A stretch of DNA of 51,405 nt, filler included, from Sphacelaria rigidula (taxonomy: Eukaryota), in NCBI GenBank assembly GCA_964200075.2. It is 4 parts of 4 records of this genome, joined end to end, with 100 filler letters (N's around TTAATTAATTAA, not from the genome) between each part and the next. Parts side by side here need not be neighbours in the genome. Positions count along the whole stretch, not along the records: positions 1 to 12,778 come from CAXNAA020003424.1; 3 more parts are not named here. One strand, written 5' to 3'. Shown here in pieces: positions 1,977-47,394 of this stretch; position 1 is the first letter of the stretch, and each line of letters opens with the position of its first letter. Below the pieces are notes generated by a model that saw only the letters and a program-made list of their open reading frames with translations, did not search any database and had not been told where the DNA came from. A program made the translations under genes and the position numbers.

Positions 1977-2234
1977 TGTGACGCCAGCCAGTGGAAGCAC
2001 TGTTGGATCACTGCTGTTGAGGAACTCCCCAGTCTTACTGGCCTCAGCTTCAGTTGTCAGCCTTTACAACATTCTCATTATTCAGGAGTGCCCTTCCAGG
2101 GCACCAGCTTTGTAGACCTGCAGATACCATCTCCGTGTCTCTGGTCATTATCCAGAACCCTCCAGAATCTCCGTGTTCCTAGTCATTACCCATATCATCA
2201 CTACCAACTCAACGCACGGCGTATTTTCGTCACA
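1977..2234 (-). repeat. 3' LTR (258 bp)
   Basis: tgtgacg...cgtcaca inverted termini; about 10 substitutions (nearly all transitions) versus 6040-6297 by manual comparison. Confidence 0.92.
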
Positions 2235-2317
2235 GGCGTCACAGCACCCCCAAAGCGCGTTGGACGAAAACCGATCAACAAGCTTGAAACGTGGAAAACG
2301 TCAAAACGACGAGTAAG

Positions 2318-3700
2318 TCACAATTGAATACCAAACTCACTCGTCATGCGAGTAGCAACGGCACGAGTCACGCGCAATTTGCGCAATTCCTTCGTAAGAA
2401 ATTCCGGAGCGGCCTCAAAAATATCCTTGAAAGGCTCCCACGTACGCTCCTCCTCAACTTCGAAACCAATCCAGTCGACCGACACGATCAACGAACGATC
2501 ATCTGCTTCTGCTACTCGGACAATACCAGTCATCTGAAATTGCCTCTGATTGAAAGCATGCTGGAACACGTCCTTAACGTCAGCCGTAACATTAGGCTGC
2601 GAGTCTACATAAAACGCAAACGAGCTACATGGGCGGTCTGAACACGACCCGAAAGATATTCTGAACCTCAAACACGTGTGAGTGGTGAGCACCAAACACT
2701 CTCCATGGACCAGTCCAAGTCGCCATCAACTTGGGCGTAACGCCCGGACGACGCGCGCGTGCATACAAGACATAGTCGCCTACCTCAAAATTCGGCAATT
2801 CCAGCCCCGACGAGAGCCCCTTACGTCTACGCGCACGTTCAGCGGCAACACGTTCCTGCACTTGAACGTGGAAACATCCTTGCAAGTCCAAGACTCCTTG
2901 CAATGTACTCTTAATTTGAACATCGTCCAAGACATCACAATTCCATTCCCCCGCCGATGAAGACGCCGGAACCGAGGAAGACGTCCGAGAAGTACGACCA
3001 AACATCCCGTGGTACGGCGTACTATCGTAACGACGACGATACGCTGTATTAAGCGCCCATTTCACCGCCGGCAACACGTCCCCCCTCTCGGAAACCGCTC
3101 TACGCTGCTCGAGAAAAATGGAGCGAAGAGCACGAACTACTTCCTTGACCATGCGTTCGCACGTACCCTCAGACCACGGAGAATACGCCACCTCAACCTG
3201 GTGATCAACGCGCAAAGCCTCTCGCAATCGGGCCATTATTGCATTCTTGAAATGCGTGGCGGTATCACTCACTCACACACGCGGCACCCCCAAACGTTTT
3301 GCACCAATTCAGCAAAGATGCAGCGGTCGATTCAGCAGTACACACTGCTACTGGTTCCAAAGCCACAAAGTTGCTCAAATCATCCATGATTACCACAATG
3401 TATCAAAACCCAGCATCCTCCGACAAACCTTGGGGAGCTAGTGGGCCACTCTCACCCACGTACAAGAAATCAAAATGAACGACACCATTCGGCGTGGTCC
3501 CATGGACCGTTTCGCCGAGCGGGCGGGGAAAAATATTGCCCGCCCTCGCACAGTGAAGACACTGGCGGACAAATTCGCGCACATGAGTTTATATCCCCTG
3601 CCAGACACAAAACGCTTGCAAGCGCACGAGCGTCGCAGCCACACCACGATGCTCGGCGTCGTGCATGTGCGCGCAAATCATCAGACGTACTTGCAACTGC
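2318..3700 (-). pseudogene. Integrase core and C-terminal chromodomain, frameshifted
   Basis: SDTATHFKN...VAYSPWSEGTCERMVKEV (rve-like), FEVGDYVL...KLMATWTGPWRV (GPY/F-like motif), and VDWIGFEVEEERTWEPFKDIFEAAP (chromodomain) in ORFs 2625-3272 and 2318-2695. Confidence 0.85.
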
Positions 3701-3759
3701 TTGTCAGAACTCGGAATCCAAAAAACGTTTCGGCCACGCACATGCACACGAAACAGACC

Positions 3760-4395
3760 TTAATTGTCCAAGATAGCAGTATCAACGTCCGACTCGAAAT
3801 ATTGCACATCCGCATCTTCCGCCCCAAGTTCTTTTCGTTGCGCTTGGCGGGCAACAGATGTGGAGGGCATCGAGTCATCAGGTTCACACGGACCACACAC
3901 AGCCACATCGCGCACAGGCATTTGAATTTCAACTGTAGGCACCTGCATGACCAAACTACCCCAATGGCACTCAAATGCATCCGGAAACATTGACACCTGA
4001 CAATCAGGACGAGGATGGAGCAGCGTCACGGCATGAGCCATCAGATCCTTCGCTGTCGCCCACACCTGCAGCCTGCCCTCCGTCCACAATGCAGCCTTCT
4101 TCGGAAACGCCATATCTGGACTGGACCACCCCGCCTGCATATTCTGTAACACCAACCCGAGCGCCAAAAGAGCCGCCATGCACAATACTAACCGAATCAA
4201 CTTCACTGGATTGTACCGCCGCGGCTTCGTCTTCACCGCGGACGCCCCAGGTTTTGGCTGAACACGCATGTGCTCCACGCGCGCAGGGGGATCACCCCGC
4301 AGCGCACGACGAAACGCGTTGACGCGGTAATGCAATATGCCGCGTAGGCGCTCCGCTTTTGAGATCCCGAGGCCTGTCGCCCCAACATCTGTCAC
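3760..4395 (-). pseudogene. Reverse transcriptase N-terminus fused to connection/RNase H remnant (RT core deleted)
   Basis: GDPPARVEHMRVQPKPGASAVKTKPRRYNP...WSSPDMAFPKK runs directly into WT...AVTLLHPRPDCQVSMFPDA..HWGSLVMQ, with no YxDD motif between them. Confidence 0.75.
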
Positions 4396-4511
4396 GCTCT
4401 CCTCCGGCGCGACCTTCCGAGGGGACTCCTATTCCGCCGGAATCATTAACATGTCTGGGCTGCGCTCTACTAAGCGTTCCACCGCCACATCCCGCCCCTC
4501 GGTCACCTGCC

Positions 4512-4590
4512 GTGCTCCGTCTCGAAAGGGATGCGTGGTCAATGGTCAAATGACTAAGGCAAGCAACAAAAAATGAGTCCCCCCCCCCCC
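4512..4590 (+). mobile_element. Short poly(C)-tailed retroposon copy (family A) inserted into the LTR element
   Basis: Flanked by a perfect 17-bp direct repeat cccctcggtcacctgcc (4495-4511 and 4587-4603). The body recurs at 16124, 18762 and 22107. Confidence 0.75.
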
Positions 4591-4731
4591 TCGGTCACCT
4601 GCCCCCCAGCCTCCTGAAAAGCATCCACCGACAAGCTCATGCGACGACTGCCCCAAAAGGCGGCCGTCTCCACGTGCGGACCAGGCGGAGACAGCCGCGT
4701 CTTGATGGAGTCCGCTGCGAAGCAACAGCAC

Positions 4732-5931
4732 CTACGGCGGCGCCGTACCCAGAGCCAGGCCCACGCTGACGCCACTGCCCCTGCTGCTGCTGATTTTGCT
4801 GCTTCCGCGGCTGCTGCTGAGGGCTCGCCTGCGACCGTCCATCGCCGGAGATTCAGCCGCCGCCACCACGATTGCCTCATCTTTTGCCCTTGTTGGATGA
4901 TGCTGATGGCGCGCGGCACTAAACTCCCCAGACTCTCCACAGGGAAACGTTGGGTAATCGCGCGCGTGATGACCGACCTGGTCACAGCGATGGCAAGTAA
5001 TACTCGCGGCGCGACCAGCTGATTTCGAGCCATGGTCGCGCACAGGTTTTGGCGAAGAGGTGGACGACTGGCCGAACACCTCTATTTTCCGCAACTCCTT
5101 GGCCTCGGCCACGACGGTGCTCATCACCAGGTACGGGTCGTCCTTCCAATCTGTTTGGTGCTGCAGCTTGACAAGCACGGCTTGCTTGAAATGTCCCGGT
5201 GCCAACCCCTCCACGAAAGCCTTAATGATTACTGTTGCCGGGTCGGGAATGAACTCACCATCGGGGGAACGATATATTAGTTCTACGGTCGAATTTTCCG
5301 TGAAGCAGTTCTCCAAATTGGCCAAGACGGGCTCCACACGCTTCAACATCGTTTTCCCCGGAAAATCCATTGCGACAGTTTTTGCCACGACCGCGGACGC
5401 TTGGGTCAGATCTACCACGGCGCCTGCCGCATGCCCAGCATGCTTTTTGATCGCCGTAACAAATTGCGGCGAGGTGAGAGTGCTCCCATTATGTTCCAAA
5501 CGAGCAAACACTTTCTGCACATGAGTTGGCACTTGTTGAGCGATTGTCACCACGTGATGCCGCACGGCAACCCCTGCATTAGCGTGCTCCACACGCTTCT
5601 TGTATTCCAAACACCTCGTGTAAAAAGTGCGAGATGCACTCTCTGAGTACCTGTCCCCGTATTGGGGAGGTCGCAATTCCTTACGCATGACCACGGGTGT
5701 CACGGTGGACGTACCTCGTGAGCCGGCAGCCATAGTTGTAGCTGTATATGGCCACCTGCGAACCTCTGCAGGCCAGCGGACTTCCTCGAATTGCGCTTTC
5801 CTTGCTTCGTCGCCGCACCACACAGTCGTAGGAGCCTCTAAACTCCCGCTGCACGTAGCTTCAGCAAGTCTCCAGTCTGGATAACAGGCCAGCCGCCTTT
5901 CTGCAGCTGCCTGAACTGGAATCCTCTCCAC
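4732..5931 (-). CDS. Gag-like ORF of the LTR retrotransposon
   Basis: 399-codon open frame just inside the 5' LTR, with degenerate zinc knuckle CHRCDQVGHHARDY (CX2CX4HX4C with the last Cys changed to Tyr). Confidence 0.7.
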   Translation of the reverse strand: MERIPVQAAAERRLACYPDWRLAEATCSGSLEAPTTVWCGDEARKAQFEEVRWPAEVRRWPYTATTMAAGSRGTSTVTPVVMRKELRPPQYGDRYSESASRTFYTRCLEYKKRVEHANAGVAVRHHVVTIAQQVPTHVQKVFARLEHNGSTLTSPQFVTAIKKHAGHAAGAVVDLTQASAVVAKTVAMDFPGKTMLKRVEPVLANLENCFTENSTVELIYRSPDGEFIPDPATVIIKAFVEGLAPGHFKQAVLVKLQHQTDWKDDPYLVMSTVVAEAKELRKIEVFGQSSTSSPKPVRDHGSKSAGRAASITCHRCDQVGHHARDYPTFPCGESGEFSAARHQHHPTRAKDEAIVVAAAESPAMDGRRRALSSSRGSSKISSSRGSGVSVGLALGTAPP

Positions 5932-6039
5932 GCGTCCGTGCTGTATCAGGTTTCCACAGCTCCCAGACTCCTACCGAAATCCTTTACGGCAGATTTCTAC
6001 CACTAACACTAACACTAGCACTAGCACTAATATCGATAC

Positions 6040-6297
6040 TGTGACGCCAGCCAGTGGAAGCACTGCTGGATCACTGCTGTTGAGGGACTCCCCAGTCTTA
6101 CTGGCCTCGGTTTCAGTTGTCAGCCTTTACAACATTCTCATTATTTAGGAGTGCCCTTCCAGGGCACCAGCTTTGTAGACCTGCATATACCATCTCCGTG
6201 TCTCCGGTCATTGTCCAGAACCCTCCAGAATCTCCGTGTCCCTAGTCATTACCCATATCATCACTACCAACTCAACGTACGGCGTATTTTCGTCACA
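6040..6297 (-). repeat. 5' LTR (258 bp)
   Basis: Direct repeat of 1977-2234 with TG...CA termini. Confidence 0.92.
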
Positions 6298-6659
6298 GAC
6301 GTCAACATTTATCCGCTAGTCAAACCCCGTGCGAAGCTGCTTCAACAGGTGGCGCGAGCAGGCACGCCCTGTGCTATCACGAGACTGTTTCCTGCTGCTA
6401 TTGTGAAAATATAATACGCATCGAAACCCTACCATTGCACGTCAGTGTATGTACATTACCTCCTCGAATTCAGGGGGACCTCAGCTTCCCCTCGATTTTT
6501 CGCCAAAAATAGGAGGAAATTGTCACACCCCGTTTTTTTCTCCCCGGATTTGGTCCAAATCGGGGCCCATGAAAATACCTTCCCCGAATTTTTTTCCCAT
6601 GTTCGAAAAAATTTAGATTGGTGACTGCCAGAAAAGGTGGTCTAACACATACTTCCCCG

Positions 6660-7069
6660 ATGTACAGTATATACTTGTACTGCCGCCCTGACCGGGCAAT
6701 ATATTCTCACCCTCACATGCCCAATATATATTGACCGACCAATATACTGGCACCCACGCGGACCCAATATATATTCAACGGTCAATATGTTCTCACCAAT
6801 ATGACCCTAATACATATTGGTCGTGCAATATGTCTTCGCCCACACCGCCCCAATATATATTAATGGGATAATATGTGTACAATCCCACGGTACCAATATA
6901 TATGTGGGGCGGGCAGTAAGTTTGCAATCCCACGACACCAACATATATTGGGTGCGCAATACGTGTGCAGTCCACAGGATCAATTATATATTACGCCGGC
7001 AATATATCGCAATACTCCAATATGATCGACTAATATATATTGGATACATATTGTATTGTCCTGGGTGTG
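6660..7069 (-). mobile_element. DNA-transposon end with arrayed CAATATATATTG-type subterminal motifs
   Basis: Many caatata(ta)ttg palindromes ending in catattgtattgtcctgggtgtg, the reverse complement of the start of the 37008-37917 array. Confidence 0.55.
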
Positions 7070-8724: not shown

Positions 8725-8994
8725 GGAGTCATCCTCCGATAGGGGGGGGGGAGGGGGGCGGGGTATTTTGGGTCACTTCTTGCACGAAATTCCAAGTCAA
8801 ACCGTCCTTGAAAGGAGCAACGGTTGCTCGAACGAGCTTGCTGTAGATATAAACGCTCGTTCATACCGATTGACACCGTTTTGAACCAAATACAAGCGCA
8901 CCGTGAATGTGGCAAGTCGTCTGACACACTTTTGAGCTTCTTTCTTCGTGCAATCAAATACCCCTCCCCCCGTCCCCTATCGTAGGATGACTCC
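8725..8994. mobile_element. MITE with G-rich TIRs; second copy at ~25830-26075
   Basis: Left end ggagtcatcctccgatagggg...ggggtattt is the inverted match of right end aaatacccc...cccctatcgtaggatgactcc. The internal sequence matches 25845-26070. Confidence 0.7.
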
Positions 8995-11797: not shown

Positions 11798-12715
11798 TAT
11801 TGCAAGTTGGGAGGATAGACGAGAGTGCTCCACGATCAACCGCATGTCGTTGCATTCGAGACCCACGCAATCAACCGCCGACAGCAAGGGTCTTGTGGCT
11901 CTCACGCGACGCGGTCGGTAGTACGGCAGGCAAACCAGATCATTACCACCTTTCCTTCCTCTACCACAAACCGGATCATTGCTACCGCGCGTCCTCTCGG
12001 CTGCTCAGAGGTCATCACGATAACAACACCGAAGTCGCAACATCTGTGAAAGCTTTAGAGCTTGATTTACTTTATCTGCATCCACATAATTAAAACGGTT
12101 CTGAAAACTTGAGGGAGGACGTTTTCCCTGTCCCCCAGACAGGCATCGATGAACGAGGGAAGACTTTCGCAGGCGGATACAACAAACATGGAGGCCCGGA
12201 GATGTTTCTTTCCATCAAAATCTATGTTTTCCAAGCTGCAAAGTGTTCCACGCGTATTGATTTCCAATACGAACGGTATCTTGTCTCATTATGTTCCGTT
12301 GTTCGAGCACTGTCCGATGCCGATCACGGAAACGTTTCGTACTACTGCTGTCCGATGGTTTCTTCGGATGTTTATGTGGACCCGAAGCCGCCGCCTTCCC
12401 TCAGGTTTTCAGAACCGTTTTAATTATGTGGATGCAGATAAAGTAAATCAAACTCTAAAGCTTTCACGGATGTTGCGACTTCGGTGTTGTTATCGTGATG
12501 ACCTCTGAGCAGCCGAGAAGACGCGCGGTAGCAATGATCCGGTTTGTGGTAGAGGAAGGAAATGTAGCAATGGTCCCGTTTGCCTGCCGTACTACCGACC
12601 GCGTCGCGTGAGAGCCACAAGACCCTTGCTGTCGGCGGTTGATAGCGTGAGTCTCGAATGCAACGACATGCGGTTGATCGTGGAGCACTCTCGTCTATCC
12701 TCCCAACTTGCAATA
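11798..12715. repeat. Long inverted repeat (arms ~11798-12116 and ~12399-12715, spacer ~280 bp)
   Basis: The arms are near-perfect reverse complements; the ORF track shows mirrored peptides (11825-12049 + and 12464-12688 -). Confidence 0.92.
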
Positions 12716-12778: not shown

Positions 12779-12878
12779 NNNNNNNNNNNNNNNNNNNNNN
12801 NNNNNNNNNNNNNNNNNNNNNNTTAATTAATTAANNNNNNNNNNNNNNNNNNNNNNNNNNNNNNNNNNNNNNNNNNNN
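12779..12878. other. Artificial contig linker
   Basis: N44-TTAATTAATTAA-N44, with stops in all six frames. Confidence 0.97.
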
Positions 12879-13521
12879 GGGTTTAGACCTTGGCTTTTCC
12901 CGACCCCCCTGACTAGTTGCCTTTTTTTCTTATTCATTCCTTTTCCCTAGCATCCCCCCCCCCCCCATCCGTTCCCCTCCTCCTCCTCCTCGGGACGACC
13001 CCGCAGTCCCAATGCAAAAGCACACCTCTCCGGTACCTGCTTGCCTCCGGCTGTACTAGTAAACGTGCTAATAGCGAGCATTGGAATATGAGTGTCAGCA
13101 TTCCCGAAGGCTGTCAGCGCTGATGCAATGATTTCAAGTTGTCCCTGTCACGAGTTCGGACGTAGTCTATTGCAGTCTTAACTGTCGCCCTCTCAGCGGG
13201 CTTGGATACGCGTGCTTAGGTTCATGGTGCGAGCAACATTTCTGAGCACTTTACATACACCGCAACGCACTCAATGATCCCTTGACTGCGCACAAAATGT
13301 CACCGTAGACGCGACAACCCCATGCATCTTTCTGCCCTCGGGGGAAAAACACGTGGAATTGAGTATTCTGCTACCGACAATCTCCTTCTCTGAAGAGAAA
13401 AACAATGACATCACCACCACTCGTCTGTTGTCGTTTTTCGGCGGGAGAGAGACGCCCGTGAACCTAATTTGAATCCTACTGCTCCTTCATTTTACCCGTG
13501 TGCATCTCCCATCCTGTACTA

Positions 13522-23718
<10,197 letters not shown>

Positions 23719-24000
23719 CTAGGGTGAAAAAACGAGGGAAAAAAATGTTGAAGGGAAGGGGGAAGGATAAAATAAAGAAAGACCAAAACAGCGGAAGAAA
23801 CCGCAACGAAGGGCCGGACACAAGACAAGACAAAACAACGCAAAAACGAACGAGGCAAAACATATTGATGTGGAAAAAAATATTCCAACTCGTGCTTCGA
23901 TTCAACCATATCGCGTGAGCGTCATGGGGACCGCGGATACACGGTATCTTTGTTTTTACCATTACCAAATGGAGGGAGACCGCCTGGCTGCAGCATGGAG

Positions 24001-24260
24001 CGGGGGGGAGGGGGGAGGGGTGTACTCATGATCTTGTATTCCAGTCATCTGACCATTGACCTCGCATCTCGCATCCCTACAGAGCCGGGACGGAGTACGC
24101 CGAGTATTCGCCGGACTAGGCTCGCACTCAATCACCAAGCGTGAAGCGCCGTGGTATGTTTAGGCGAGTCGCATGAAGGGTGACATGCATCCCGCCAAGA
24201 TTGTACGGCCCGAAGGGTACTGATCATCTTACATTTGGGGGACAGCCTTCGATGAGTTGC
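24001..24260 (-). mobile_element. Family B copy
   Basis: G-run then tgtactcatgatc...gaccattgacctcgcatc...taggcgagtcgcatgaagggtga. Confidence 0.7.
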
Positions 24261-25655
24261 TGCAGAAGAGCAGGGCAAAAGCTCAGAAGAGTAGGGCGGC
24301 ACGTCCACTGCGCTAAGTTGACAGGGGGTTCTAGTAGGTTCGACACCCACACTGCCTCGGGCAAAGCTTTCCAAACGCTTGTGGCGCCTACCCCACATGA
24401 CTGCCGCGAGGCGGTCTAGCTTGAGTCACCGTGTAATTGGCACACGAGCCCGTTCGCGGGATAAGTGTTGGATGAGGTTTCCTCCTTCCTTCAAGGGAAA
24501 GAAAAAAAAAACGCCGACCTCATAACCGGCAATTACCGGCAAAAGATCATGCACATCCATGGGAAAACGGCACAACGCCCATACATGAGGGATATAGACT
24601 TTTGTAGTGAAATGCGACCTTCATAGTGAATCATGTGGTGACATATGTTTGTGATTGGCTGTCAGACTCGAGTTACACCTGCAGTGTACGTCCTACAGTT
24701 TAGGAGTGGACAGTAGCGCCGCGACGGATAGAACAGCAGCAGAGAGACGAAACTGCAGACAAGCAGATAGCGGATGATACATTGCCGCCGCAGTGAGTCA
24801 TTGCGATGCTCGTGTATCGGTATATCCCTATCTTAGTATGTCTGGTCATTCCGTGGCCGCGAGCGCTGGCCCCGATACCAGCGGCAGCAGCCATGCTGGC
24901 GGGTGCAAGGAGTACCCTAGCGGTGCAGTATATCCGCACTGTACCGTGCGTTGCTCCTTTCATCGGAGCACGGGGTCTGACCCAGCCGGTCGAGTGGTGT
25001 ATACCGGCGCTGGTTGTGTGTCTTTACCCAACCATGTTCCGCATCGCGCAAGTGATGGGTCCGGTTAACATGAAATTTTCAACAATCAAGTATGCAGACC
25101 GCACTGCCCCCCACTGATACTATAGTTTACAGAGAGACGAGCACAAAAATACAGCACTTCGAGCAATCTCAGCGGAGATCAAACCGCCTTCGCAAGGTCT
25201 GAACCCATAAGAGAATAGTGATAACTACAGCACATGAGAGCAGACGTGAGTGTGTATGTGCTACGGTACAGTAAGTTCATTTCTACCATTATAACAGAGG
25301 AAAACATGTAGTGCAGTCAGTATATCATGAAACAATAGGCACCCTTTTCAGTCCACAACCTTTTATTTATTTTCGGTTTCTTTCACGTCGTCGTTTACTA
25401 TGGTGTTCTGTCCTACTTCTTCTTTCTCTTCAGAAGAGTGTTTTAGTTTTCTTTTGCCTTGGGTACGTCTTCATCATGTGACCACGGTTGGATCCCTGGG
25501 GGGTCAGTTAAAGTGCGACAATCAACTAATCGATCAAACGATCAATCAACCTCCCCCCCCCCCCCCCCCCCCCCCCCCCCGCCCACACAAAAAAAAAAAG
25601 CACGCCCCCTCCCCCCGGCCGAAAAACCCCCACCCCAAAACCACAACGAACAAGA

Positions 25656-25755
25656 NNNNNNNNNNNNNNNNNNNNNNNNNNNNNNNNNNNNNNNNNNNNT
25701 TAATTAATTAANNNNNNNNNNNNNNNNNNNNNNNNNNNNNNNNNNNNNNNNNNNN
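25656..25755. other. Artificial contig linker
   Basis: N44-TTAATTAATTAA-N44. Confidence 0.97.
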
Positions 25756-25829
25756 TCTTTTGTGGCTTGTCTTGTTCTTGTGCCTTTTCCCCAGTCACCC
25801 ATTCGAGGCAGGAAGACCGTCGCAAGGTG

Positions 25830-26075
25830 GTGGGGGGGGGGGGGGTATTTTGGGCCGTTTTCTTCCACGAAATTCCACGTCAATCGCCGTTGAAAGCAGC
25901 CAACAGTTGTTCGAACGCGCTTGCTCCCGATAAATAACGCTCATTCATACTGCTTCATTACACCGCTTTTACCCCAAACACAAGCGCACCACGAGTGTTT
26001 TAAGTCGTTTGGCGCATCTATGAACACATTTTTTCGTGGAATCGAACACCCTCCCCACCTATCGTAGCATGGCTC
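25830..26075. mobile_element. MITE, diverged copy of 8725-8994
   Basis: ggggtattttgggcc...cacgaaattccacgtcaa...ttgaaagcagc...caagcgcacc, and right end ccctccccacctatcgtagcatggctc. Confidence 0.6.
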
Positions 26076-26837
26076 ATCGCTACCGCACATGGCATGACAC
26101 AACACCTGTGGCGAGGTGGGATGGCAGAACTGTTGGGGTCCCCAACACAATCATTCAGTGATGTACACTCACGTGGAGGTTGGCATACATCGCAACCCGG
26201 TGAACCCACGGTAATCCACGGTTGTGTGCCTAAACATTACAACAGTTTGACATATCAACAGGGGGTCTTGTCGACGCGGCGAGGGGTTGTCGTGAGGGTA
26301 CCGGTGCTCGTACTGTGTTTACACACGGTAACCGCGAAGGGCGACTGACAGAGAGGACACCGGAGCATGGCAGTAATCGTTCAAAGCGATACTGCGGAGT
26401 TGGCTACGTGAACCAACAGTGCATGTCCTGCCCGCCGTTCAAACATTTGTTTTGCGGCACCATCGCCTAGATGATACCCTTGTCTCGCGTGCATGTTTCG
26501 TACGATTTCTTCATCTTGCCGGGATCTCGTTGGCCTAGAATCTCCTCTGGTTCCTTAGCAAGTTGTGAGAAGTAATGAGGGAGAACACAAGCAGAAAAAA
26601 AACGCCAGAACACCCCAACAGTTTCACCATCTACACCCCCGAAGCCCTCTCCACTTTTTCTTTTTCTTTTTCTGACCCTTCGTTTCATCGTTCTCCCCCC
26701 ACCCCGTAATTACGGTGGCGAATTATTTTCCGTTTGTTCACCTACTTCATGTATATCTTCCCTGTGGTCACCGTTGGATGCGTGGCGGATCAAGTGAGGA
26801 GGCACAACCGATCGATTGACGCAGTCAGGGACCTTAC

Positions 26838-29800
26838 CTCATAGGAGTCTGGGAGGCAGTAGACTCTGCACGTGCGCAGGTTGATGAACACGTGATGCCC
26901 GTGTTGCACGCTATGCGTGTAGGCATGCGTGTTCTTGCCCCTGCCCTGGAAGTACTTGCCGCACACCAGGCACGCGTAAACGTTGTTGTTCGACAGCGAA
27001 ATGCTGCATAGCTGGCAAAACAAAACACAGCAGCGTTGAGTTTTTTGTTCAAAGAAAACGAAACAAACGACGCGGATGCAGTCAGTAGTCAAAAAGAGAG
27101 GGGGGTGCGAAACAGGGGCTGTAAGATGGGGGTCGTGCAAGCACGGCAGAAGAAGAAAAAATGATCGGCACGTGAACTTGCATCTCTTTCGCCTGTTTAG
27201 ATTTCTAGTACTGCAGAAATTTCTACTATACATAACCCACGTCGCGACAAGAATGTTGGTTTTGACAGATGCGATGAGATGCGCAGTCCAAGGGTGATCA
27301 CTGCAAAAGCAATAACAGCCGATTTTCGAAATTGAGATAGAGCTTTTCATTGAGGATGATGACCCCGACAAATGGAGTATATGCATCCACACCAATTCTT
27401 CGACGAATGGTTACATTCCTTCACCTGCTGGTAGCGATTGATAACAACTATACGCCATACAAATTTGGATCCAAACAACCGAAATTTTGGGGTTCTATGT
27501 ATGAGAACAACTTAGCAGAATTGAGGCGATCGGATCCCAGCGCCTAAATTCTACAAAATTGTTCTTTCACCTAGGACCCCAAAATTTCGGTTCTCAGAAT
27601 CCAAATTTGTATGGAGAGTAGTAGTTGTCAATAGTTATCAGTAGTCGAAGGAATGCAACCATATTTCGAAGAATTTGTGAGGGGACAAAGACTTTGATTT
27701 CCCGGGTAATCATCTTCAAAAAAGCTCCACCCCTAATTTTTGGGGGTTGACTGCCTTATGCAACAAGACGGTAGGAAAATATCGTGAAGAATCTCGTCAT
27801 ACGTATTCAGTCACTTCCAACAGTCGTGACTGAGAGACCGGAACTCAGAACGACCGAAGACGGTGGTTTGGAACATGGTGCTTTGACATTTAAAAAAAAT
27901 GGATGACCGAGTTCGGTAGCACACAACTTCCATCTCTCGTACGTTCTATAATTCCCCCTCGCCGCAACACACCCACGGGTCAGAGGGTTTCGGCGGGTGC
28001 AGTATCACACCGGCATCTACAGTACTGTCCCGGGGTACGGTGTACATCAACGCTGAGTATCACCGTCGAGATGGTGACCTCACGGACCCCGACAAAAGTC
28101 ATCACCACAGTGCGGTATCCACACCGGATGCGGGAGGCAGCATTGCCTCAAAGCGGATAGGCTAGGGTTCGGCCGTTTGTAGTTTCCCCACAGTGAAGCA
28201 TTTTGATGACGATTCCGTGCAGACACTCCTCGAATCCAACGTTTGCATGTGCTGAAACCGCATTATCCTGAACGGCAGTCATTGCAAATATGTAGTACTG
28301 CCGCTGCTGCGGCTGCTGCTCTCTCTACACAAGGTCGTCACCCGCTTTTGAACAACCATGGGGTTCCTCGTCAGGTTTGGTGATAGGTTGCAACTTTCAC
28401 CTGCGTCTGTCATTAGTCGTGTGTATTATCTCCTGGAGAGCATGCTGCTAATTTTCCGCCTGAGATTCTGGATAGGTTCGAGTGCTGTAAGGGCTGGGGA
28501 TCGGCCGTTCTTTGTCGGCGCGCTGAACACGCGGCTTACCCTGGAAAGTCGCCCGCAGCCAGGCTTCTACTGCTCTGTAGACGTATGGGCTTCGTGGCAG
28601 TGGCATCGGGTGGTGCGCTTTCCCACACGTGTCGTGCATCATCATGTCCAACGACATTGGTTATCATCCACTTACGATCAACCTGCAACAGGCCCTCTGG
28701 ATTTTCGCGAGCTTCGGTCCTCAAACGGTTGACGAATTACCAGAACTTATGTCCGAGGGGTAGTCGTTGGTGAATGATGGCCTGCACCATGAATACCTAC
28801 CAAACAGCACTACATGCTCATGAAGAGAGCGTGCAACGCTGATAGTCGAGATCCTGCACAAAGTGTGCTACGTGCCTTGATTCGGTTTTGGCTACATAGG
28901 TAAAACTACTGTACAGGTCAAGTACGGCGAACATGCTACATAGCACGAGATACCGCAATGACTCCAGAAAGAGACGGCTGCAGACGGCGAGATCGTACTC
29001 TTCGACACCAGGAGGTGTCGTGTAGGCAAGGCGTGGAGCAAAGTGCGGACGTCGTTTTGGAATAGTACGAGCCCATGTTACCGATCGAAAATTCGTGTTT
29101 TAACCGTAACTGAGGACATACGTTATGTCGGCACCTGATTTCTGGATACCGCGGCGTTAACATCAAGTGCAGGAATATTTTTGTGTTTCATCGCGCTACT
29201 GTTGTAGAGGAGCATATCACATGATCTACACATCATAGACAATCCAAATCACAACGTTTGAGGCTTCATATGCACATCTCACGCATGGAAAAAAAAACTC
29301 GATGTAAGTCCGACAGCCTAAAAGTTATTCACCCAAACGCGCGAGGTGACTCGACTTTGAAATGACTTTACAGGCTGGTTCACGCTGATCGCCCAAAATT
29401 GTGTCATCAGCAAATGCCTTTCGCAATACCTACCCAATAGTCGCGTACATGGTATCATACTGACCGCCATGGACAGCCGAAGAGCGTGACATAGCCGGGT
29501 TTTTGTGTTAGGCCATAGTGGTAGCGGTAAGGGCGACAAGGTATGTCGACCAATCAGCGCCCGTAAAATTGTTCCGAGATCGAACTTACGAATCCCAAGC
29601 CCAACTTTCATCCAATCGCCACATGCTTCGAATCGTAGTAACCGTCATAGTTCGTACTTGGTCCGTAAGCCGAAATTGACCGCGTATCGAGCATCCGGAG
29701 TCCCAAACCACCTTAGAAAGTCTGATTCAGACCATCATCGGAAAGCTAGGCACACAGATTCCTCAGTATCAGACCACTTTTCATGAGGAACAATCTGCAT

Positions 29801-36282: not shown

Positions 36283-36660
36283 GGGGGGGGGGGAAGGCGG
36301 GCATTCTCATGACGTTGCATGCCCTAGTCAGAAGACCATTGACCTCACACCCCAACAGAACCAGGACGGAGCACGCTGGGTTTTCGCCGCACCAAGCTCG
36401 CAATCACCACGCTCGAAGCGCCGTAATGTGTTAGGCGAGTCGCATGAAGGGTGAGCTGCATCCTGCTAAGACTGTTCGGCCCGAAGCGTACTAGGTATCT
36501 TGCATATGGATGGCAACCTCGAATTGGTCGCTTCATTTTTTGGTATCACCACTTCCTGAGACAGCGACAGGTGACAGACTGCCTCATGAGAGTCTCCTCA
36601 TTTCAACACTATGCGGTACGATCAACCTCTTTCCGCGGAGTTCGGGTTCTCCACCCCGCA
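36283..36660 (-). mobile_element. Family B copy (may extend to ~36830)
   Basis: G-run then attctcatgacgttgcatgccctagtcagaagaccattgacctc...ggcgagtcgcatgaagggtgagctgcatcctgc, colinear with 15305-15685. Confidence 0.7.
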
Positions 36661-37007: not shown

Positions 37008-37917
37008 ACACCCTGGACAATACAATATGTAATATGTATATTGCCCGCACAATATGTGGATGCGTCGGGTGGTCAATAAATATTGGGCGAGCAATATGCT
37101 GGCACGAGAGAGGGTCAATATATATTGTGCCATCAATATGTCAAGGCCCGCGACATGCAATATATATTGACCGAACAAGATATCACGACACGCGCCACCT
37201 CAATATATATTGGCCGAGTAATATGTTGGTGCGAGAAAGCACCACTATATATATATATATATACGGAGTATATATATTTGTCGACTAATATATTGGCTGC
37301 CACACAAGGTCAATATATATTGATGATTTAATATACTCAACACCCGAGGCGTCAATATATATTGCCGCCCCAATATGTCGTGCGTCAATGTGTCCAATAT
37401 ATATTGGGCGGACGATATACGAGGGAACCGACGGTCACGATACATATTGGTGTAGCAATTATTTTGATTTTCAACATGTAGATTGAAAAGTGTATTGGAA
37501 TTAGTATGGTGGGCAACTCTATGTTCGCGGGCGCCATTGAAGCATGTGTCACCACATGCCGAAAATGCTCAATATACTCCCCCGCACGCGTGTTCAAAAT
37601 AAATTGGCTGCCCAAAAGCTATGCGATGAGCGTGAGCAATATATATTGGAAAAACAATACTTTTGCATGGTTTGGGTTCAATATATATTATGGTAACAAT
37701 ATGCTACGCATCGCTTCGACTCAGTATATTTTGACACCTCAATACATACACGGCCGGCATGCACAATATATATATATATATATATATATTGAATGTTTTA
37801 TTCCCGGAGCAAATGCATGTCCAATTTATATTGTCATACATTACTTTATTATCATGACAGGAGCGATATATGTTGGTGCTTCCATGTCTCCGAGGGTATC
37901 TCAACACAATATATATT
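37008..37917 (+). mobile_element. DNA-transposon end with arrayed CAATATATATTG motifs
   Basis: Starts cacaccctggacaatacaatatg, followed by many caatatatattg-type palindromes. Confidence 0.6.
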
Positions 37918-38360
37918 CAAGGGTAGGTCGAGTAGAGTATGTACTTTTGAGTACTCGAGTAAAATACTCAAGTATTTACTCTACTCGACGTTTGAGTAGG
38001 TCGAGTACGGCCTCAAATACTTTACTCAATTTTTGAGCAGGTCGAGTACGGCCTCACATACTCTACTCAATTTTTGAGTAGGTCGAGTACGACCTCAAAT
38101 ACTCTACTCAAATATTGAGTACGTAAGCACTCTCAGTAATACTCGAGTATAGAGTATCACTTGAGTGTGACCTCAATACTCTACTCAAATTTTGAGTACG
38201 TTGAGTATGATCTCAAATGCTCTACTAAAAATTTTGAGTACGTCAAGTACGGCCTCAAATACTCTACACAAATTTTGAGTAGATCGAGTATGACCTCAAA
38301 TACTCTACTCAAATTTTGAGTAAGCACTCTCAGTAATACTTGAGTAAAGAGTACCCCTGA
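37918..38360. repeat. ~41-bp degenerate tandem repeat with palindromic core TACTCAAATTTTGAGTA
   Basis: About seven units of gtcgagtacggcctcaaatactctactcaaattttgagtag, in two blocks each closed by taagcactctcagtaatact(c/t)gagta(t/a)agagta. Confidence 0.85.
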
Positions 38361-38531
38361 CCGTCGGCGACATTGTGAGGTCACTTCATACACTATGTTA
38401 AATGGATGGGCGAACGATTGCCATAAAAAAAAAGAAAGCGTGTAGGTGAATTAACCTACCTGCCCCAGCGCCACATCTCACCAGCCCCCACCCACGGCAG
38501 TTCATACTCGATACCTCGCAACGCCTTCGAT

Positions 38532-38631
38532 NNNNNNNNNNNNNNNNNNNNNNNNNNNNNNNNNNNNNNNNNNNNTTAATTAATTAANNNNNNNNNNNNN
38601 NNNNNNNNNNNNNNNNNNNNNNNNNNNNNNN
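38532..38631. other. Artificial contig linker
   Basis: N44-TTAATTAATTAA-N44. Confidence 0.97.
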
Positions 38632-45348: not shown

Positions 45349-47394
45349 TCATGCAGGCCCTTCGGTCGCTACCCAAAACGCGCTCCAGCAACTTAATGCA
45401 TATACGACCGCAGTTTCCGCTCGCAAAACCGATGGTCCGAGAGACACGAAGCGCACAAAAGAGCACGCGGACATCGCCTCGATTTCATCTGGCGCGAAGC
45501 CCCCCTCCGGTCCCACGAAAATAGCACTCCTAATTGCCCCATCACTGCTTATACTGGTGTTGCTATAGCCACCCGCGCCGGCGAGTGGTTGCTGGCTTTG
45601 CCCGCGCTGTTCCCGTGCAAACTCCTTCAGCGCATCCAGCAGCGGCGGCGCATCCTTGTCCCTCTCCTTGCACACGAACATCACCTTGGGTGGGTCATCA
45701 TTGGTCAACAGTGAAGTACCCGCACTCGGATGTCCAGCCTGACTCGGTACAATACCCGAAAATTCTCTCCCGGATGCGACAGTGCTTGTGTCGCTTCCAC
45801 AGCGACTGCCGGCGGGAACACCGGGGACGTCTTGCGGTTCCGTAGACGAAGCGCAGGTACGATATGTCATCGTACGGTCGTCGACACGCGTCTCAATTTT
45901 GTGTTGCCATTCCAGGAGCAGAGACGCCAGCTCTACCGCAGTTGACTCCATATGCGGAACGGTCATCCGCTCGCTCTGTTCAGCCGCCTCAACAGCGATG
46001 AGACGCAGCTTTTCGAGAGATGAAGAAGCTGATGCATCTTCTGCGCAGCCTCTCTGGGTGCGGGCAGTCAATACGGGGACCAGTCGCGAAGCGCCAACCT
46101 CCACCGCTTTTTCGACCAGCACCTTCAGGCGTTGCTTACGAATCGGAGCAAAAAGGAGATCTACGTCCGGCGCTGGCGCGGTGGGTGCTTCTTCGTGCGT
46201 GTTGTTATCAAAGCTCGGATCTTCTGACCCAAATGAGGTACCGCGACAGGGCTGCTTTCGTATCAGGCGATCTAAACACAACGTCACCGGGCCTCCGCCC
46301 GATCTCGCTTTCCCCTTTCCGGCGCGTCCGCCCCCACTTTTCGCTGTGGCGGATACCGTGGCTAAAAACTCTCCGCTTGCACCATCAAAAACGCGGACGC
46401 GGCTACCATCCTTCAGGCGCATGACATTGACGATGTAGTGCGCCTGACCCTGAGAGAGTTCTACGAACTGACCTGCCTGCAGTGCACCACTCGCATCTCC
46501 AAGATACATGCGAGGCGTGCGGGTATCGACTGTTGTGATTCTGCTGTCCACGGCTGAATTGGGGTCTGAAAAGGAAGGTTCCCGCATTCCTTGCCGAGAA
46601 AAACTTCGCAACTTATCCCCAGCAGTCTCCTCGCTGAGGTAATCCTTCGCTCTCTGGTGCAGCTGCTGCCCATCAAAAGGAAAAGGCGTGCGCATCAGCG
46701 TGTGTGGATGCAAGGGACTTCGATCTTACTCGAGAACGTGTCGAGCAACTCGTGCTGCACAATCGTACAGTAAACACAGTAGGTGAATCCATACTCGGGA
46801 GGGGGACACACATACACATTGCCGCATCCATGTACGCACTACACCGTAGAGGGTGGGCACGTCGAGACATACATACGATGCACGGCATATTGGGTCTACC
46901 AAATTCCTGTTTTACGTCCCTGTTTACTGTTCATGCGCGCTTGGATATTCGAGTACTTCTTATACGAGGCGGCAAACCCCTGCCCAAGAGCATGTTATCC
47001 CACGTGACACATGTGTGCAATACTGTAACAGCGATAGAAGGGCACGGAAATGACCACAACACATTCGAACATAACCCCCCGGAACAGTACACCCACTACA
47101 CGAGCAACATCAACTTACATGAGTGTCATCGCAGGCTAGCCTCCACGGTAGCCGTAATCTGAAACGTTCCGCAACTCCTGCTGGTCCGACGGCATATCTA
47201 CCATGCTTGTTGAGGAACGTGCTGATTCCACCATGAGTACTGTCGATGTAGCAGCGACGCTGGCCCGCTACTGGCGTCGAGAGGAGTGAGCAAAATGCCA
47301 TGGCGCAATGGTTCTGGGAAAATGACGGAAGGAGTATGGGCATGAAAAACAACCGTATATGGCGGCATCGCAGGCTGAGGTGGCACCACCACAT
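45349..47394 (-). CDS. rsmE: 16S rRNA m3U1498 methyltransferase RsmE, two exons, probably plastid-targeted
   Basis: Exon 2 (46665 or 46662 to 45349) has QAHYIVNVMRLKDGSRVRVFDG, EKAVEVGASRLVPVLTARTQ, EAAEQSER and IFVGPEGGFAPDE...SLGPSVLRAETA (SPOUT). The proposed exon 1, 47394-47119, ends CAT|gtaagt in phase 0 and is less certain. Confidence 0.92.

Follow-up and report, generated by a model that had tools for sequence, protein, structure and literature searches.

Insertions ending at C runs in the brown alga Sphacelaria rigidula read as 5'-truncated copies of a LINE, most likely of the RTE-X group

Results

The window, meaning the whole 51,405-nucleotide stretch of Sphacelaria rigidula DNA analyzed here, consists of four separate pieces of 12,778, 12,777, 12,776 and 12,774 bases joined by N44-TTAATTAATTAA-N44 spacers (12779-12878, 25656-25755 and 38532-38631), so repeats found on different pieces are not physically linked. 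The DNA is gene-poor, with a GC content of ~50%. Host coding features include an exon encoding a zf-UBP domain (26790-27410, minus strand) and a gene for an RsmE-type 16S rRNA methyltransferase (45349-46725, minus strand), the product of which carries a long N-terminal extension and is probably organelle-targeted. This product is 100% identical to a protein labelled Sphacelaria rigidula at NCBI, and other brown algae supply its next named relatives; a protein-cluster search with it gave bacterial clusters only. A MITE-like element of ~270 bp occupies 8725-8994, has a relative near 25790-26100 and is unrelated to the LINE described below; its ~45-bp terminal inverted repeats contain G/C runs (GGAGTCATCCT.CGATAGGGG...GGGGTATTT). 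Arrays with a 43-bp period, organized around the palindromic motif CAATATATATTG, were found at 6679-7008 and 37061-37748 and look like subterminal repeats of a DNA transposon. A GAGTA-rich tandem repeat with a 41-bp period forms two blocks within 37946-38363, and a 324-bp inverted repeat (11798-12121 and 12392-12715) has arms that are 96% complementary and 270 bp apart.

The insertion that forms the subject of this study (copy A) lies at 4495-4603. As the sequence-only reading of this DNA had reported, an insert of 75 bp including its tail (4512-4586) is bracketed by perfect 17-bp target-site duplications (TSDs): the left copy, cccctcggtcacctgcc (4495-4511), is repeated at all 17 positions by the right copy (4587-4603), both being unstranded features that begin with CCCC. 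This repeat scored 18, whereas no pair among 2000 drawn at random from the window reached 11; when one mismatch is allowed, it extends to 20 of 21 positions. The body of the insert is a 67-nt LINE-derived segment (4512-4578, plus strand) that ends in aaaatgagt and is directly followed by a run of 12 C (4579-4590), after which the sequence continues with tcggtcacctgcc. Since the last four C of this run are part of the right TSD, the tail proper, which is the portion of the run outside the 17-bp TSD (4579-4586, plus strand), comprises 8 C, or 4 C if the 21-bp TSD is counted instead. The segment corresponds to the last 19 codons of a LINE, its TGA stop and 2 nt, and includes a conserved hairpin (4538-4560). 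Two LTR-like direct repeats of 265 bp (1977-2241 and 6040-6304; 96% identical, TGTGACG...CGTCACA) flank ~3.8 kb with a 412-codon frame (4732-5970, minus strand) that has a weak zinc-knuckle match, and 1977-6304 is probably a gag-only LTR element. As copy A lies inside this probable element, it would be the younger of the two insertions.

A coding parent for copy A was identified in metagenome sequence; none of the 112 frames of at least 100 codons in the window matched RVT_1. Metagenome contigs were scanned with a 26-letter motif taken from the shared 3' module, which gave two loci, L001 and L002, where the module forms the end of a long open frame and is followed by a C run. L001 ends in ...aacaaa TGA gtacg C8, with the stop 5 nt before the C run, and L002 ends in ...aacaaa TGA ctacg C11 g C5; across copy A, L001 and L002, the distance from stop to C run is 2-5 nt. 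The L001 frame (P0001) runs for 1253 codons without a stop and is open to the 5' end of its contig, with matches to Exo_endo_phos at residues 64-285 (E 3e-11) and to RVT_1 at residues 634-883 (E 8e-33), while the 90% identical P0002 has 1360 residues and an M start. By its sequence, the L001 element qualifies as an APE-type non-LTR retrotransposon with a predicted endonuclease N-terminal to the RT in one frame. Copy A was 94% identical to L001 positions 3710-3784, and tblastn matched 19 of 19 residues to P0001 1235-1253. The earlier reading had proposed a LINE/SINE system and had suggested extension in the 5' direction as a way to an RT-encoding master; both ideas held up, as the window copies align to the 3' end of an EN-RT frame that stops just before a C run, with the master residing in metagenome L001 rather than in the window. 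This parent is known from the two metagenome contigs only, and their species may differ from that of the window. The best named relatives of P0001 were unnamed Ectocarpus sp. proteins (58-71% identity), and assignment of the LINE to RTE-X is most likely on the basis of matching features and these unnamed Ectocarpus relatives, as opposed to a tree with reference elements. Overall, copy A is very probably a dead, severely 5'-truncated copy of a LINE with an autonomous non-LTR parent of brown algae, most likely within the RTE-X group catalogued in Ectocarpus.

Three further copies with the same 3' end beside a C/G run, also noted in the sequence-only reading, were recovered and complete family A. 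Copy B (16124-16564, minus strand; 440 bp) comprises 424 nt of LINE 3' end (16141-16564) and a C17 tail (16124-16140), and is 74% identical to L001 positions 3349-3792. Copy C (18764 to about 18830, plus strand; ~70 bp) is 89% identical to positions 3710-3779, has a degenerate tail (gccctctcc) and lies within imperfect 14-bp TSDs spanning 18750-18844 (ccccctcgaaattt at 18750-18763 and ccctctccaaattt at 18831-18844; 12/14 matches), with a score of 9 that was reached by 0.7% of random pairs. Copy D (22108-22230, minus strand) comprises 108 nt of LINE 3' end (22123-22230) and a C15 tail (22108-22122), and is 82% identical to positions 3660-3784 with a deletion in the hairpin region. Family A thus has one fixed 3' end and 5' ends at L001 positions 3349, 3660, 3710 and 3710. 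The claim that the copies differ in length at the 5' side was borne out with one qualification: three distinct 5' ends occur among four copies, as copies A and C begin at the same base. Judged from these alignments, the family A insertions read as 5'-truncated copies of an L001-type LINE, ranging from 70 to 440 bp.

A second set of insertions (family B) has only the last ~75 nt in common with the LINE and is non-coding in all five copies, to which we refer as the partner family. Long copies of ~350 nt lie on the minus strand at 15300-15664, with 15300-15322 as the C-rich tail and a C11 run (15675-15685) close upstream of the 5' end, and at 36283-36632, with a C11 tail (36283-36293). A shorter copy at 24000-24264 (minus strand) has an interrupted C-rich tail (24004-24023). 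The short copies of ~110 nt share one 5' end and are found at 16578-16689 (minus strand; ~110 nt, tail cccctttcccc) and 18415-18522 (plus strand; ~108 nt, with the element at 18415-18514 and a C8 run at 18515-18522). The latter is flanked by perfect 11-bp TSDs (CCCCCCCTAAA, 18403-18413 and 18516-18526) with a score of 11, which 0 of 2000 random pairs reached. The 16578-16689 copy is arranged head to tail with copy B, the 5' end of which directly follows its C-rich tail, and this pair is consistent with old tails serving as new targets. We considered whether the partner family represents a SINE; a pol III head (tRNA, 5S or 7SL) was not found, as Rfam (at gathering score) and tRNA scans gave no matches across the whole window. 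The family is best called a LINE-dependent non-autonomous element, a term likewise used for such partners by the authors of the Ectocarpus catalogue in the parts of that work consulted (PMC12477816).

The association of the 3' module with C runs was assessed by searching the 51-kb window with a profile of the shared end that had been trimmed of its C tail. Nine copies were detected (four of family A and five of the partner; E 1e-20 to 1.8e-9), with nothing further in the window below E = 1 and the next match at E = 1.5. Within the 12 nt beyond the element end, at least 7 C were present in 9/9 copies compared with 2.3% of window 12-mers, and at least 8 C in 8/9 compared with 0.9%; an A run after the C run was seen in none of the nine. 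TSDs starting in the C run were clear in three copies (A, 17/17; partner 18415, 11/11; C, 12/14). No TSD above chance was present in the other six (B, D and partners 15300, 16578, 24000 and 36283), corrected 5' ends included, with partner 15300 giving a match in the C run only. The sequence-only reading had held that a lack of TSDs in most copies would speak against retroposition, and formally this is the outcome in six of nine; these six are old copies that share 72-82% identity with one another or with the LINE, and decay would suffice to explain why no TSD is seen.

C/G runs were also observed elsewhere in the window. Runs of 11-28 at 12954-12966, 16933-16944, 25553-25580 and 15675-15685 have no recognisable LINE module adjoining them, and could be old target tracts or tails left by copies with extreme truncation. 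In addition, minus-strand C27 and C28 runs (19321-19347 and 19461-19488) each follow ...catgtcgtg, at a distance of 135 bp from one another and with a 10-N gap intervening. Despite this common preceding motif, no tie of the pair to the LINE was found, and the runs may represent another C-tailed family or an assembly problem.

The gap is relevant to the reading of C/G runs as sequencing or assembly artefacts in general, as G runs of 27-28 flank it (19321-19488). Against such an origin, two metagenome contigs drawn from other data sets show the same junction between module and C run, and the runs lie between stretches of unique sequence and are bracketed by TSDs; we reject this reading as having practically no probability. 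A true MITE, the ~45-bp terminal inverted repeats of which contain G/C runs, is likewise present in the window (8725-8994), which raises the question of whether family A could be a DNA transposon or MITE with an internal C run. Family A instead corresponds to the 3' coding portion of an EN-RT frame, TSD length varies (11, 14 and 17 bp), and in none of the nine copies are the two ends matched by inverted or long terminal repeats, in line with the distinction from this MITE drawn in the earlier reading. A DNA transposon was rejected as scarcely credible.

Where a TSD is present, much or all of the adjoining C can be traced to the target itself. The 30 nt preceding the 5' junction contain CCCC in 7/9 copies compared with 8.6% of window 30-mers (binomial ~1e-6), and G/C runs are frequent here, with 14 of length 8 or more in the 51-kb window. 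The TSD accounts for all C in copy C, 7/8 in partner 18415 and 4-8 of 12 in copy A, leaving 0-1, 1 and 4-8 C, respectively, beyond the target's own; with so few C in excess of the duplicated target, the junctions point only weakly to a tail carried on the RNA. All of this would be expected if the LINE had no C tail of its own and was site-specific for existing (C)n/(G)n tracts, with the adjoining C derived entirely from the duplicated target. Copy A, however, has 12 C downstream where the upstream target copy reads cccgcccc, so that at least 4 C were added, and the Ectocarpus element is tabulated with a consensus that includes "(C)n 3'" (PMC12477816). We regard an origin of the C from the target alone as quite improbable. 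The two readings are otherwise compatible, since a short RNA tail would need a G run for pairing.

The common 5' end of copies A and C at L001 element position 3710 is not predicted by random truncation, and it coincides with GTGCTCCGT, the same motif at which similarity between the LINE and its partners begins; partners 16578-16689 and 18415-18522 also have a common 5' end. Copies A and C could accordingly be viewed as a minimal, non-autonomous element of ~70 nt that consists of the tail module only and has a defined 5' end at this motif. This pattern draws on two copies, and it would arise equally well from an RT strong stop or from preferential 5' joining at the base of a structure. Moreover, the 94% identity of copy A to the LINE makes recent LINE RNA its simplest source. 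A separate minimal element thus appears unlikely, and we retain truncation of the LINE as the preferred reading.

The 3' module contains a candidate RNA hairpin, which in copy A (4538-4560) has the form GUC-AAU-GGUC-N4-GACU-AA-GGC. Over 11 sequences, 97% of cells were paired and the loop was variable, whereas slid controls paired at 13-47%; 9/500 shuffles did as well as the real alignment. Covariation was limited to one pair that changed on both sides, in two sequences. Together, these comparisons are suggestive of a conserved hairpin in the 3' module. The same nucleotides also encode the protein motif ...G[C/R]VVNG..., and V[VA][NYD]G was present in the last 30 residues of 23/120 P0001 homologues (down to ~38% identity) compared with 13/3968 other 30-residue windows. 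The conservation of the extreme C-terminus, which is kept as DNA in the non-coding partner, would fit a signal that acts at the level of RNA. Proteins P0007-P0036, only ~40% identical to P0001, still end in ...SAH..GCVVNG..AMAA, which is unusually conserved for a LINE C-terminus.

Discussion

The sequence-only reading knew of no description of a C-tailed system of this kind, a claim that did not survive comparison with the curated Ectocarpus transposon catalogue (Genome Biol 2025; PMC12477816). In the table of its supplementary file 1, RTEX-1_Ec32 is described as "single EN-RT ORF; (C)n 3'" with a "C-rich" TSD, and RTEX-2_Ec32 as having "(C)n termini/TSD" (PMC12477816). RTE-X LINEs of brown algae that have (C)n ends and C-rich TSDs are therefore an already catalogued kind, as far as these table entries describe them, and the LINE studied here resembles them in its (C)n 3' end, C-rich TSDs and brown-algal host; its EN-RT frame, open at the 5' end of the L001 contig, may correspond to their single EN-RT ORF. 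It differs in that the host of the window, judged by the label of the identical methyltransferase, belongs to another brown-algal order. The remaining Ectocarpus LINEs of the table have (CAA)n or (CA)n termini, including RTE-1 and RTE-2 with (CAA)n (PMC12477816). RTEX-1 is listed for Saccharina as well (PMC4421812).

The non-coding partners also have described counterparts. RTEX-N1_Ec32 and RTEX-N2_Ec32 are given in the same catalogue as non-autonomous, with unknown heads, 60-100 bp of shared 3' end and C-rich TSDs, and they "can be present in tandem" (PMC12477816). Going by this description, they resemble the window partners in being short, non-coding elements that share a LINE 3' end (~75 nt here), and in the one head-to-tail pair, but measure 607 and 188 bp compared with ~350 and ~110 nt in the window. 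Table 1 of the catalogue records 16,418 RTE-X copies in Ectocarpus, corresponding to 3.41% of the genome, and RTE-X elements with their partners are stated to be the most abundant Ectocarpus repeats (PMC12477816). The main-text passages of that paper on tails, C-rich sequence, RTE-X and target sites hold no mention of a C tail or a priming mechanism (PMC12477816), passages from RTE-X papers on Chlorella, bivalves and Saccharina hold nothing on tails, those of a brown-alga genome preprint include none on LINEs, and no retrotransposon paper was among the matches listed for "poly-C tail". Within the literature searched and the parts of it consulted, no analysis of C-tail priming on G runs was found, and the words of the supplementary table were the only trace in print. 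The window contributes a member that belongs to a different brown-algal order, one young and clean insertion whose 17-bp TSD is perfect, the placement of a putative 3' recognition module inside the last codons, and a head-to-tail pair consistent with tails as targets.

The best known parallel is L1, which has a poly(A) tail and nicks at TTTT/AA. As in L1, the TSD of the algal LINE begins with the base of the tail, the tail would pair with the nicked bottom strand, and copies are 5'-truncated. Unlike L1, the homopolymer is C; as polyadenylation cannot supply C, a C tail must be encoded by the element and regenerated in each round. The 3' UTR of the algal LINE is also only 2-5 nt long, and its partners share a specific 3' module, which corresponds to "stringent" RNA recognition rather than recognition of the tail alone. 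Eel UnaL2/UnaSINE1 is an example of a stringent LINE/SINE pair in which a 3' stem-loop is combined with a short-repeat tail, and microsatellite tails are known from RTE elements. The algal pair resembles UnaL2/UnaSINE1 in its common 3' module with a hairpin and in a simple-repeat tail other than poly(A), but differs in that the repeat unit is a single base and the hairpin lies inside the coding region.

From the DNA junctions, we infer an RNA that would end in oligo(C) and be primed on a G run. In the mechanism we propose, the endonuclease would nick the bottom strand just 3' of a G run, for which the putative nick sites are 5'-GGGG/C at copy A, G7/A at partner 18415 and G5/T at copy C. The exposed G run could then pair with the C run at the RNA 3' end and prime reverse transcription, with no poly(A) being copied. 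A second nick 11-17 bp away would create a TSD that starts with the C run of the target and merges with the C tail of the element, while premature termination would yield 5' truncations. The RT would recognise the 3' module and not the tail alone, and the non-coding partner, which would parasitise the LINE machinery, has in common with the LINE the last ~70 nt that overlap the last ~20 LINE codons. Old C tails could subsequently become new targets, giving rise to head-to-tail pairs.

A broader version of this proposal, to which we give somewhat less than an even chance, is that C-tail priming on G runs is obligate and ancient for brown-algal RTE-X and its marine relatives. The RT would read the hairpin in the last ~15 codons, which would explain the conserved ...G[C/R]VVNG... 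terminus, and tails would seed targets so that the elements both create and consume G/C tracts.

A C-tailed LINE indicates that, in target-primed reverse transcription, the tail can pair with the nicked target independently of poly(A). As a natural G/C counterpart to L1, it also lends itself to tests of co-evolution between endonuclease specificity and tail sequence. For genome annotation, short C-tailed fragments such as 4512-4586 are now assignable and no longer unknown repeats. At the scale of whole genomes, RTE-X elements and their partners probably shape the G/C homopolymer content of brown algae.
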